A DNA stretch of 64,000 nt from the NCBI GenBank assembly GCA_036785375.1, contig JAWMAR010001184.1, positions 186,001 through 250,000 on the forward strand, read 5' to 3'. Positions 6,921 to 52,098 of the stretch are shown here, in pieces; positions within the stretch are counted from its first letter, which is position 1; the number at the start of each line of letters is the position of its first letter. Source of the stretch: Leucoraja ocellata. Taxonomy: Eukaryota. Below the pieces are notes generated by a model, which made no database searches, was not told the DNA's origin, and saw only the letters and a list, made by a program, of their open reading frames with translations. A program made the position numbers and the translations under genes.

Positions 6921-8089
6921 ACTTGGGTAAGTTGTTTGGAGTTGGTGGCTTGAAGGAAAAGGAACGTCAGGAAAGTGGGATGTTGTTAAAAATGTGCTGA
7001 CAAGAGTTCAGGGCAGGCACATTCCTGTTGGAGTGAAGGGCAAGACAGTAAAATGTAAGGAAGTAGGCAAGGCAAGGGAAATTGAGGATTTGGGCAAAAG
7101 TAAGGAGACATGGGACAGCTGGGATCAAGTGTACCCCTGGAGGAGTTTCGGTAACCGAGTAGCAAGCTGAAATCAGAAAGGCAAAAAAATAGACAGGAGA
7201 TAGCTCTGGCAGATAGCATTAAGAATAATCCCAAGAGATTTTATAAGTACATAAAGAAAAAAACCATGAGAGAATGGAACCCGTCAGGAATCAAAGCGGT
7301 CAACTCTGCGTGGAGTCACAGAAGATGGACAAGTAATTCAATGAGTGTTTCTCCTCTGTTTTTACCGTGGAGAAAGACAGGAGGACAGAGGAATTTGGGG
7401 CAGTCACTGGAAGTGTCTTGAGAGCAGTCAGTATTATGGTCGAGGAGTGGCTGAAGGTCTTGACATGTATGAATGTAGACAAATCTCCCGGACCTGATCA
7501 GATATATCCGAGGAAACTGTGGGAAGGGAGGAAATTGCAAGAGCCCTGGCTAAGATTTATAAGCCGCCATTAAATACGTGAGGTGCCAGACATCTGGAAG
7601 GTGGCAAATGCTGTGCCTCTATCCAAGAAGGGCAGCAGAGAAAAGACTGGGAACTACAGGCCAGCGAGCTTAACATCTGTTGTTGGAAAGTTACCAGAGA
7701 GTACTCTGAGGGATGGGATAGACATGCATAGCATATACATATATGACAAGGGCTGATTAGGGATCGCCAGCATGGTTTTATACATGTCACTTTTGAATCT
7801 GATTGCGTTTTTTGATCATGTGACCGAGAAGGTTGATGAAGACATAGCGGTGGATATGCATATGGATTTCACCAAGGCATTTGACAATGTTCCGCATGGT
7901 AGGCTGCTCTAGAAGATTAGATCCCATGGGGTCCAAGGAGAGATAGCTGAATGGATAGAAAATTGGCTTAATGGAAGGAAGCAGAGGGTGATGGTGAAAG
8001 GCTGCTTTTCGGACTGGAGGCCTGTGACTAGTAGGTGTGACTCGGGGTTCGTTGCTGAGCCCATTGCTATTTGTCATCTATATCAATGA

Positions 8090-8223
8090 GGTGGGAGATT
8101 GCAACCTTCATGTGGTCTACTATGTTTCGACTAATGCAATCAACCCGACGTGCACAAACAAAAGATCAAATAGAACAAGTTGACCTACAACTTTAGGCTG
8201 TGCACACCATACGCAAGAAGAAG
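8090..8223 (+). mobile_element. Short retroposon with a 5' HDV-like ribozyme motif and (AAG)n tail (Ingi/Vingi-like non-autonomous), copy 1
   Basis: Inserted in CR1 with a 14-bp TSD ATCT(A/T)TATCAATGA (8076-8089 / 8224-8237); homologous to 24533-24678. Confidence 0.85.
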
Positions 8224-8615
8224 ATCTTTATCAATGATTTAGATGAGAACGTACATGGCATGGTTAGCAAGTGTGCAGATGACACAAATGCGAGTGGTAT
8301 TGTAGATAGTGAAGATGGTTGTCAAAAAATGCAGCAGGATCTTGATTAGTTGGCCAGGTGAGATGAGGAATGATTAATACAGAGAAATGTGAGGTGTTGC
8401 ATTTTGGGAAGACTAACATGGGCAGGACCTATACAGAGAATGGCAAGGCTCTGGGGAGTGTTGTAGAGGAGATGGATCTAGGATACAGGTACATAGTTTG
8501 TTGAATGTGGCGCCACAGGTAGATAGGATGGTCAAAAAGATACAGGCACATTGGCCTTCATCAGCCAGAGTATTGAGATTAGAAATTGGGAGGTCATAAT
8601 GCAGTTATACAAGAT

Positions 8616-20689: not shown

Positions 20690-20884
20690 AGTACACAAAA
20701 TTGCTGGAGAAACTCAGCGGGTGCAGCAGCATCTATGGAGCGAAGGAAATCAGTCTGAAGAAGGATTTCGGCCCGAAACGTCGCCTATTTCCTTCGCTCC
20801 ATAGATGCTGCTGCACCCGCTGAGTTTCTCCAGCAATTTTGTGTACCTTCGATCTTCCAGCATCTGCAGTTCCCTCTTGAACAC
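20690..20884 (+). mobile_element. Young Penelope-derived mini-element with 60-bp perfect inverted arms around a hammerhead core, nested in an older related element (~20623-20975)
   Basis: 13-bp TSD AGAGTAACTCAGT at 20677-20689 / 20885-20897; arms 20691-20750 and 20787-20846. Confidence 0.9.
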
Positions 20885-23219: not shown

Positions 23220-24532
23220 CCTACAAGATCTCTCACTGGGTTTGACAGGGTAGGTGCAGGGATGATGTTCTTTGCCAGGGTGTCCAGAATGAGAAATCAC
23301 AATTTTAAAGTAAGAGTTTAGATGTGAATACATTTCTCAATGAATCTTTGGAATTCTCGAGCCAAGGCCGGGTGGATCTCAGTCGCTGAATACACTCAAG
23401 GCAGAGTATGATAATTGTTTTCTATAGGAAGGGATTCGGGGGGGGGGGGGGGGGGGCGGGGATGTGGGGTTGGTGCAAGAAAATGATGCAGAGCTAATGT
23501 TTCAAGTGCGATCATATTGAATGGAAGAACTTATCACCTTATAACTGGCACAGGGGGGCTTCCAGTTCTTAACCATCCAGGAATGCAGTGAGATTTCTGA
23601 ATTTCTCCAGTACACGGTTACTATGTGCGAAAGGCAAACAATCCACAGATCCCACCCCCCCGCCCATCACGTACTCCTGCCGTCTGTTATTCTGTGGATC
23701 CTGACTCAGTCACCTCAGCACCCACAGAACCACAGTGGAAAATGTCACCTTTACCCCCAAATATTCCCCACACAAGACCTAGTAATATATAGATTACTTT
23801 CTCTGATCCTACGAGGGGTTTTTGACCTAAAATATATTTTTCTCTTTCCACAGATGCTGTTTGACATGCTAGATTTTTCCAGTACTTTTATTTTTTATTT
23901 AGATTCCTTGTCCATCCTTCCTATATCCTGTCTAAATATACAATATGAATTATCCACGTTCTAATTTACCTACATATTCGCAATATCTCCTTCCTATATC
24001 AATGGGTCCTGTATCTTATCTAAATATGTCCTAGTACATACTATGTGACTGGTTAGTCTGGTGAACAATAATTAATTCAGTTATTTGCTCCATGTCATTA
24101 CTAGACATGTTCTGACAGTTTGTGATCCAAATATCCATCAGGATGAGGTTTAAATATGAAACCGTGAAACAAGCAATTAGATTTATGATCCAACACTCCA
24201 GTACAGGAAGTCCTCCTGCCAGCAATGTACTGAGCTTGGCACAGAGTGAAAGGGCATGAAACTGACAGTGATAAGAAGGCTCACAAATCCCAGTGACATT
24301 AGCACTTCAAACTGTGACAGCAACATTCTTTTCTGGGCTTCCAGATTGTTGTCCTTGAGTATTGATTCCCACCAGCACAAGTGTCAAGTCTCTACCAGGC
24401 CTCTTCATTTCTCCACAAGAAGTCTCTGGTGCCTGCTGGTGGCTTCTGTAGACATTGCATTAAACCCAGTCCTAATCTCATTTGGCCTCCTGCACACATC
24501 CCTGCACCAGTCTATGCAAACTAATTTGGTGC

Positions 24533-24678
24533 CTCTCCTTCTTCTTCTTGTGTATGGCGTGCACAGCCTAAAGTTGTAGGACAACTTGTTCTATTTGATC
24601 TTACTTGATTGTGCACGCCAGGTTGATTGCATTCATCGAAACAGGGCGGACCACGCGAAGGTTGCAATCTCCCACCCC
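24533..24678 (-). mobile_element. Short retroposon with a 5' HDV-like ribozyme motif and (AAG)n tail, copy 2 (full-length)
   Basis: 9-bp TSD ATTTGGTGC at 24524-24532 / 24679-24687; homologous to 8090-8223. Confidence 0.88.
24625..24678 (-). ncRNA. Minimal HDV/CPEB3-like ribozyme fold (catalytic C replaced by T in this copy)
   Basis: GGGGTGG(P1) GA GATTGCA(P2) ACC(P3) TTCGCGT(L3) GGT(P3') CCGCCCT(P1') GTTTCGA TGAA(J4/2) TGCAATC(P2'); G1-U wobble at the element's first base. Confidence 0.8.
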
Positions 24679-24790
24679 ATTTGGTGCATGATGCACACTC
24701 TCCCTTTGTAATTCTGGTGAACTGGTCAACACCTGGATTTATTTTTGAGATGTAGTCATCATTGGCAAAGTGTGCATTTATTCATTAGTA

Positions 24791-51878: not shown

Positions 51879-52098
51879 CAAGAAGGAACTGCAGATGCTG
51901 GTTTAAACCGTAACCAGACACAAAAGCTGGTGGAACTCAGCGGGTCGAACAGCATCTCTGGAGAAAGGAATATGTGGCATTTCAGGTCGAGACAGTTCTT
52001 CAGACTGAAGAAGGATCTCGAACTGAAATGTCACCCATTCCTTTTTCCAGAGATGCTGTCTGACCCGCTAAGTAACTCCAGCTTTTTGTGTCAATCTT
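51879..52098. mobile_element. Palindromic Penelope-derived mini-element with back-to-back hammerhead cores
   Basis: Imperfect palindrome 51917-52092 centred on TCTTCAG-A-CTGAAGA (51997-52011); TSD TGATAT(A/C)ATTTC at 51867-51878 / 52099-52110. Confidence 0.82.

Follow-up and report, generated by a model that had tools for sequence, protein, structure and literature searches.

A short retroposon of Leucoraja ocellata is an internally deleted Vingi-type LINE derivative with a predicted P4-less HDV-type ribozyme at its 5′ end

What sets the 5′ end of a retroposon of about 140 bp at the first base of a ribozyme-like fold? An earlier note on a 64,000-nucleotide stretch of Leucoraja ocellata DNA (contig JAWMAR010001184.1, positions 186,001 to 250,000; hereafter the window) had placed such an element on the minus strand and had read its head as an essentially P4-less, minimal HDV/CPEB3-like ribozyme. 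Our check of the sequence bore out the position and the HDV order of the helices: bases 1-54 fit every HDV/CPEB3 helix, and there is no P4. The retroposon body, delimited from the sequence and from comparison of copies, is 132 nt long and belongs to subfamily A (24547..24678, minus strand), with G1 at 24678. The predicted minimal HDV/CPEB3-type ribozyme, defined by sequence and structural descriptor, takes up nt 1-54 (24625..24678, minus strand). On this strand it comprises a 7-bp P1 with a G1-U36 wobble (nt 1-7/30-36; 24672-24678/24643-24649), a 7-bp P2 (nt 10-16/48-54; 24663-24669/24625-24631) and a 3-bp P3, ACC/GGU (24660-24662/24650-24652), with a 7-nt L3 (24653-24659). J1/2 is 2 nt long, P1.1 is the single pair C22-G37, a 5-nt linker (24636-24640) follows G37-U38 where P4 would be, and J4/2 consists of nt 44-47. 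C44, the catalytic position that corresponds to C75 of HDV and C57 of CPEB3, lies at 24635 and is T in this copy, one of four differences from the family's commonest base (A23G, C44T, A75G and G128A). An (AAG)3 tail (24538..24546, minus strand, read from the sequence) is followed by five purines (24533-24537), and perfectly matching 9-bp copies of a target-site duplication (TSD) lie on the 3′ side (24524..24532) and flush with G1 (24679..24687).

A second copy in the window (8088..8224, plus strand) belongs to subfamily B, is 88% identical and has a 12-bp TSD with one mismatch; it retains C44, while its P1 and L3 have decayed. Both loci recur with near-identical flanks on another contig (L002), which is a haplotig or a segmental duplicate. 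Self-comparison of the window also returned three fold-back or MITE-like stretches, each self-complementary and 160-190 bp long, at 2700-2884, 20691-20846 and 51917-52092.

We ran our own HDV structural descriptor on the window, on shuffled windows, on shuffled heads and on 57 copies of the family. The site described above was the sole match in the window, and matched only when T was permitted at position 44. There were no matches in 20 dinucleotide-shuffled windows, and none of 5,000 shuffled heads passed, so the HDV-type fold of the element head is not a chance resemblance. This descriptor check had been proposed in the earlier note, and among genuine copies 27 of 57 passed, 21 of them free of mismatches; all 17 helix pairs and every core residue are intact in 20 of the 57. 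Rfam models gave no match in the window at gathering level, no ribozyme family among intact copies at E values up to 10, and no match of the short element to RF00622 at its 35-bit cut-off. The minimum-energy fold of the full 135-nt RNA, calculated by a method blind to pseudoknots, contains P2 and lacks P1, and the 54-mer folded alone, again with nested pairs only, forms P1 and P3. In principle, a UUCG loop closed by G37-C44 and U38-A43 could hide the catalytic C. A C-to-U change at the catalytic position inactivates this class of HDV-like ribozymes (PMC10879173), and the copy at 24678 would be inactive because its catalytic C has been lost (T44). P4-less members of the HDV class reportedly retain a metal dependence resembling that of full-length HDV (PMC6326823, citing Riccitelli 2014).

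The wider family gives a clearer view of the ancestral head. A first look at the 3.44-Gb genome returned 2,146 candidates, the best 40 at 96-100% identity, and a 20-nt word from the tail has 6,860 exact genome matches, a count that also takes in assembly segments present in duplicate and the tails of the partner LINE described below. Our sample comprised 90 of the first 100 tail-word matches listed; it was picked by tail and is thus blind to the head. Removal of 19 flank duplicates left 71 independent insertions, of which 57 reach the head (nt 1-8) and 46 start exactly at G1, the clustering of 5′ ends that self-cleavage had been expected to leave. Scaling gives a lower-bound estimate of about 4,300 independent full-length copies with the exact tail word. 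Of the 57 full-length copies, 46 yielded a TSD call, 33 of them at 10-12 bp, and a few short calls are probably due to chance. The family mode is 11 bp, so the 9-bp duplication reported earlier is accurate for its own locus but not typical of the family. The same is true of the L3 sequence TTCGCGT: the family has UUCACGU, with A23 in 54 of 57 copies. There are at least three subfamilies, and within the ribozyme they differ mainly at nt 8 (in J1/2), nt 32 (G or A opposite U5) and nt 45 (which follows the catalytic C and is flipped out), all of which are tolerant sites.

The earlier note had also attributed T44 to CpG decay of a C that the family keeps, and the copies agree. Fifty-two of 57 carry C44; all five T44 copies have G or A at position 45, and C44 is kept in all 11 copies with T45, where it lies outside a CpG. 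Other CpG positions decay alike (12.9%, versus 3.0% at non-CpG sites). At non-CpG sites, decay after insertion is 2.96% in the head and 3.13% in the middle of the element. Contigs from three public runs carry C44 in 92-98% of depth. Loose ends pile up at 24678/24679 in all four public runs that were examined, and the flanks of this insertion are also present in the contigs of two of the three runs.

Two further observations concern the copies. Of the 46 copies that start at G1, 26 have a T immediately before it, against a background of 28% (P = 5e-5). In most cases this T closes the TSD, and in some it is an additional base. The bias is also visible in copies of the V-A LINE described below; it could stem from a preference for certain targets or from an untemplated A added to the cDNA. 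Separately, a captured, tailless fragment of the element sits within another dispersed repeat with C-rich flanks (L172, L179, L180, L183, L184, L186, L190, L196, L198 and L199), and its ribozyme is destroyed because nt 30-57 are deleted.

Where did such an element come from? We looked for a partner LINE with five exact-pattern searches, each requiring a mismatch beside the head or tail. They yielded deletion variants, truncations and a captured fragment, with no LINE among the results inspected (45 of 293, 30 of 52, 30 of 77, 30 of 135 and 30 of 40). These patterns missed the partner because the actual junctions sit at about nt 81 and nt 95. One frame of the element's tail reads like the C-terminus of a database relative. 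We then searched with that C-terminus and fetched 30 loci, five of which represent a new family whose ORF ends in LDLQL-stop and runs into the exact 3′ end of the element. In one such copy (L448), 38 of 39 nt are identical to element nt 100-138. Among 20 further copies of this LINE, 19 match the tail and four match the head, three of these in inverted and one in the same orientation. The 20 copies are 84-96% alike, all are broken and none is full-length. The partner encodes an endonuclease and a reverse transcriptase (RT) without RNase H, its endonuclease begins about 115 nt after G1, and its pieces are colinear with a second LINE family, V-A, from the RT to the C-terminus.

The most informative partner copy is L467, a single insertion between 11-bp TSDs that contains an inverted head together with LINE body and tail. 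Over 80 nt its head matches a subfamily B copy at 97.5% identity, and over 77 nt it matches a subfamily A copy at 90.9%. The inverted piece ends exactly at G1 and continues into the N-terminus of the endonuclease; this N-terminus and the inverted endonuclease in L464 overlap at 90%. L452 likewise joins an inverted head to LINE body and tail in one insertion, flanked by a 12-bp TSD with one mismatch. Inverted 5′ pieces occur at five of the 20 partner loci (L451, L452, L463, L464 and L467), with single-insertion TSDs at L452 and L467. Inversions of the kind produced by twin priming are known mainly from L1, and we infer that those seen here are in keeping with twin priming of an RNA whose first base was G1. 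As to what moved the youngest copies, the partner head is nearer subfamily B than A, and no partner among the 20 copies is intact.

By sequence comparison, the element consists of LINE nt 1 to about 81, a filler of about 13 nt and the last 38 nt or so of the same LINE. At the minus-strand locus, the 5′ UTR segment, identified through its head identity to L467, covers 24598..24678; the filler, delimited by sequence comparison, covers 24585..24597 and looks like a local duplication; and the 3′-end segment, identified by its match to L448, covers 24547..24584 and contains the last ORF codons, the stop codon and a short 3′ UTR. The element has the features of a SIDE, with both ends homologous to one LINE, no ORF, a TSD and a LINE-type tail. 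Since both ends are common to one LINE, the sequence comparison makes it a bipartite, non-autonomous Vingi-type LINE, internally deleted and non-coding, and not a tRNA SINE. The Ingi/Vingi-like affinity suggested earlier thus holds, as does the expectation of an autonomous LINE sharing both ends, albeit one found in broken copies. The proposed non-tRNA origin also agrees with ARAGORN, which found no tRNA genes in four loci, and with a scan of one copy that gave no match to A/B-box motifs. That the element could instead be a conventional polymerase III SINE, whose small-RNA head resembles an HDV fold by accident, is suggested by its size, copy number, simple-repeat tail and TSDs. We give this reading almost no credence: there is no tRNA in the four loci and no A/B box in the copy scanned, none of the 5,000 shuffled heads passes the descriptor, and the head is the LINE's own 5′ UTR, which already contradicts a SINE.

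Other LINEs were considered as parents and rejected. A search with Pfam PF14529 returned two-ORF LINEs, which we take from their architecture to be Nimb-like; these end in (AAG)n and have no similarity to the element. Two of them (L136 and L137) are young, with an intact ORF2 of about 1,250 aa and (AAG)n tails. The presence of young CR1-, Nimb- and Vingi-like families is in keeping with a vertebrate other than a mammal, such as a cartilaginous fish. Families V-A to V-E, described below, have no blastn similarity to the element and were set aside as direct parents, but V-A, with the same TSD length and tail type, could act on it in trans. The 3′ half of the element contains a 10-bp long-range stem (nt 60-69 with 114-123; 24556-24565 with 24610-24619) that pairs head-derived with tail-derived sequence, and nt 92-108 (24571-24587) form a hairpin of 6-7 bp; these may be structures recognized by protein.

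A genome search with the Rfam CPEB3 model extended the picture to other LINEs. It returned 59 scored matches, 56 of them over the 35-bit cut-off and the highest at 64.7 bits. Many head the V-A family. This LINE is 3.13 kb long, has a single ORF, ends in an (AAG)n tail and lies between TSDs of 10-12 bp; its only domains are Pfam Exo_endo_phos_2 and RVT_1, without RNase H or an ORF1. Searching with the V-A endonuclease led to four more families, each headed by an HDV-type fold, two of which were parsed by eye. The partner's RT is 45-47% identical to that of another Vingi-type family and groups with these families, apart from Nimb, with a FastTree support of 1.0, in a tree that has Nimb as its only comparison group and no named Vingi reference protein. 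We use the name Vingi because of the single-ORF, RNase H-free build, which is that of Vingi (PMC13708176), and because the sister-family heads resemble, by eye, the 5′ end of Vingi-2_Gav printed in the supplement of PMC5786205. Among the sister families, V-D (L323-L327 and L421-L450) is headed by an HDV-type fold whose P1 contains an A-C mismatch; it has many 5′-truncated copies, a (TAAA)n tail and an 8-bp TSD (one insertion, two assembly copies). V-E (L328-L330) lies on many small contigs with internally repeated ORF segments, and one of its heads has a weak match to Rfam HDV-F-prausnitzii (30.5 bits, below cut-off).

We aligned ten heads, three near-identical short copies and seven from other families. 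Outside P4 the alignment is gapless, except that one row has a gap of 2 nt and another lacks three bases at its 5′ end, and 92.6% of alignment cells pair. Two-sided, compensatory changes occur at 12 of 18 pairs. The covariation score is 0.63, compared with 0.21 in shuffles (none of 500 reaches it) and at most 0.12 when the partners are slid; a measure of further pair types showed no excess over shuffles (105 of 500). This is a between-family signal, scored on a structure model drawn from the same sequences, and within the short family there is only a one-sided change, at the 5-32 pair. U20, C22, C24, G25, G37, C44, A46 and A47 are invariant in all ten heads, and these are the residues fixed in a published HDV design descriptor (PMC6326823). 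Together, the fold, its conservation and the 5′ junctions suggest that the head is probably a working ribozyme that defines the 5′ end of the element.

One polyA RNA-seq run, of which about 6% was read, supplied 757 reads from the family. Of these, 93% run on into unlike flanks; the reads cross G1 on both strands in similar proportions, and there is no pile-up of read starts at G1. The polyA reads thus represent passive read-through; they lend no support to efficient cleavage in vivo and are compatible with slow cleavage or none. Slow cleavage remains compatible because its products may drop out: a 3′ fragment bearing a 5′-OH end could escape fragmented polyA libraries. In the same reads, L3 variants are higher on the presumed sense strand and loss of C44 is higher on the antisense strand, at few loci; because ribozyme-breaking variants gave mixed directions at few loci, we set them aside as evidence.

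The read-through, the absence of a start pile-up at G1 and the full-length RNA fold that competes with P1 would also suit an element of the same origin whose head acts chiefly as a protective 5′ fold or an internal promoter for RNA polymerase II, with a slow or vestigial ribozyme; on the promoter version, an RNA start at G1 would reflect initiation. There is precedent in L1Tc, whose head is both promoter and ribozyme (PMC3383444; PMC8256844). We nonetheless consider this quite improbable. The catalytic residues are invariant and the helices covary across families whose RTs share only 40-63% identity with that of one member, all 11 non-CpG copies retain C44, and the general point about 5′-OH products weakens the argument from missing read starts. 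Building on the observed family, its ends and TSDs, the partner LINE, the structural fit and the covariation, we favor an internally deleted Vingi-type LINE derivative whose P4-less HDV-type head would, with high probability, cut before G1. Under this model, host RNA polymerase II would read through copies of the element, and intact heads would cleave themselves just before G1, releasing an RNA that starts at G1 and retains the whole ribozyme. A Vingi protein acting in trans would bind the 3′ end and nick the DNA, and reverse transcription from the (AAG)n tail would then generate the duplications of about 11 bp. With an intact core in about one-third of full-length copies, host pre-mRNAs could contain many potential cut sites.

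The sister heads also bear on the memory-linked CPEB3 ribozyme of mammals (RF00622). The short element shares its spacing of 7-2-7-3-7-3-7-GU, the L3 sequence UUCACGU, CGAA in J4/2 and a single C-G pair in P1.1 with a U-U beside it; CPEB3 P1.1 consists of a single C-G plus a U-U (PMC9901934). The short element differs in its helix sequences, its lack of P4 and its lack of an RF00622 score, whereas scores against that model reach 64.7 bits among the sister Vingi-type heads. L261-L310 (including L292, L303, L306 and L309) are multicopy Vingi-type families and short derivatives with CPEB3-model scores of 35-65 bits. The head of L303 equals the Rfam mammalian CPEB3 consensus at 55 of 62 aligned positions, in a count that begins at the end of the 5′ strand of P1 and includes P2 and P4. 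L303 consists of the head alone, inserted between copies of its own 10-bp TSD, and in L302 and its near-duplicate L309 an L303-related head is followed by Vingi-type C-terminal codons (E = 9e-7). These comparisons suggest that the mammalian CPEB3 ribozyme is likely an exapted Vingi retrotransposon head.

Some of the shared residues are fixed by the HDV core, as would be expected if the likeness arose by convergence on one fold, or if Vingi had captured a host ribozyme. Either seems unlikely to us. The identity (55 of 62) spans J1/2, P2 and P4, which are free to vary among Vingi families; many deeply diverged Vingi-type families begin with the fold, whereas the CPEB3 ribozyme is reported only from mammals (PMC8233481, published in 2021, gives it as not found outside them); and the head-only insertion of L303, with its own TSD, exists. 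Exaptation from Vingi therefore remains the preferred reading. In its widest form, we find it fairly probable that the whole Vingi clade starts with HDV-type ribozymes, that a 132-nt combination of P4-less ribozyme and Vingi tail has spread to thousands of vertebrate sites, and that the CPEB3 ribozyme is an exapted Vingi 5′ end. This gives the CPEB3 ribozyme a testable origin and natural outgroups and, if true, supplies the outgroup that studies of its evolution have called missing. A literature search, with subscription papers, Repbase notes, patents and bioRxiv supplements beyond its reach, found no paper joining CPEB3 and Vingi and none linking Vingi to a self-cleaving ribozyme in the text available. 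With these heads, Vingi would join the ribozyme-headed LINE clades. Vingi-1 is under development as an RNA-only gene-insertion tool, and its RNAs keep the native 5′ UTR (PMC13708176); therefore, a 5′ ribozyme would bear on template design.

The element has counterparts in several known systems. The Vingi clade and its derivatives (Vingi-1_EE, Vingi-2_Gav) have a single ORF with endonuclease and RT and no RNase H, as does the partner, and internally deleted derivatives are known there too. The accessible part of Kojima 2018 (PMC5786205) counts Vingi among the makers of bipartite elements and does not include it in the ribozyme-bearing clades; the SIDER paper PMC4035085 treats elements that combine ribozyme and tail, and Vingi is unmentioned in its available text. 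HDV-like ribozymes have been reported from lamprey and lancelet (PMC8256844). The lack of P4 is shared with minimal HDV-like (drz-Mtgn) and theta ribozymes, about 99% of which were found in phages and whose minimal forms are called undetermined in origin (PMC10879173). Unlike these phage forms, the predicted P4-less ribozyme described here, of a type known almost only from phages and metagenomes, heads a nuclear retroposon. The logic of a ribozyme joined to a LINE tail is itself already known from R2 SIDEs and NARTc, for both of which cleavage has been shown (PMC3414825 and PMC3185411, respectively). Like NARTc, RIME and SIDER of the L1Tc/ingi group and like R2 SIDEs, our element combines a 5′ HDV-like ribozyme with the 3′ end of its parent LINE, has no ORF and has precise 5′ junctions. 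It differs from NARTc, RIME, SIDER and R2 SIDEs in its Vingi-type parent, in its genome-wide insertion at thousands of copies in a vertebrate, and in its size of only 132 nt, with a 54-nt ribozyme that lacks P4.
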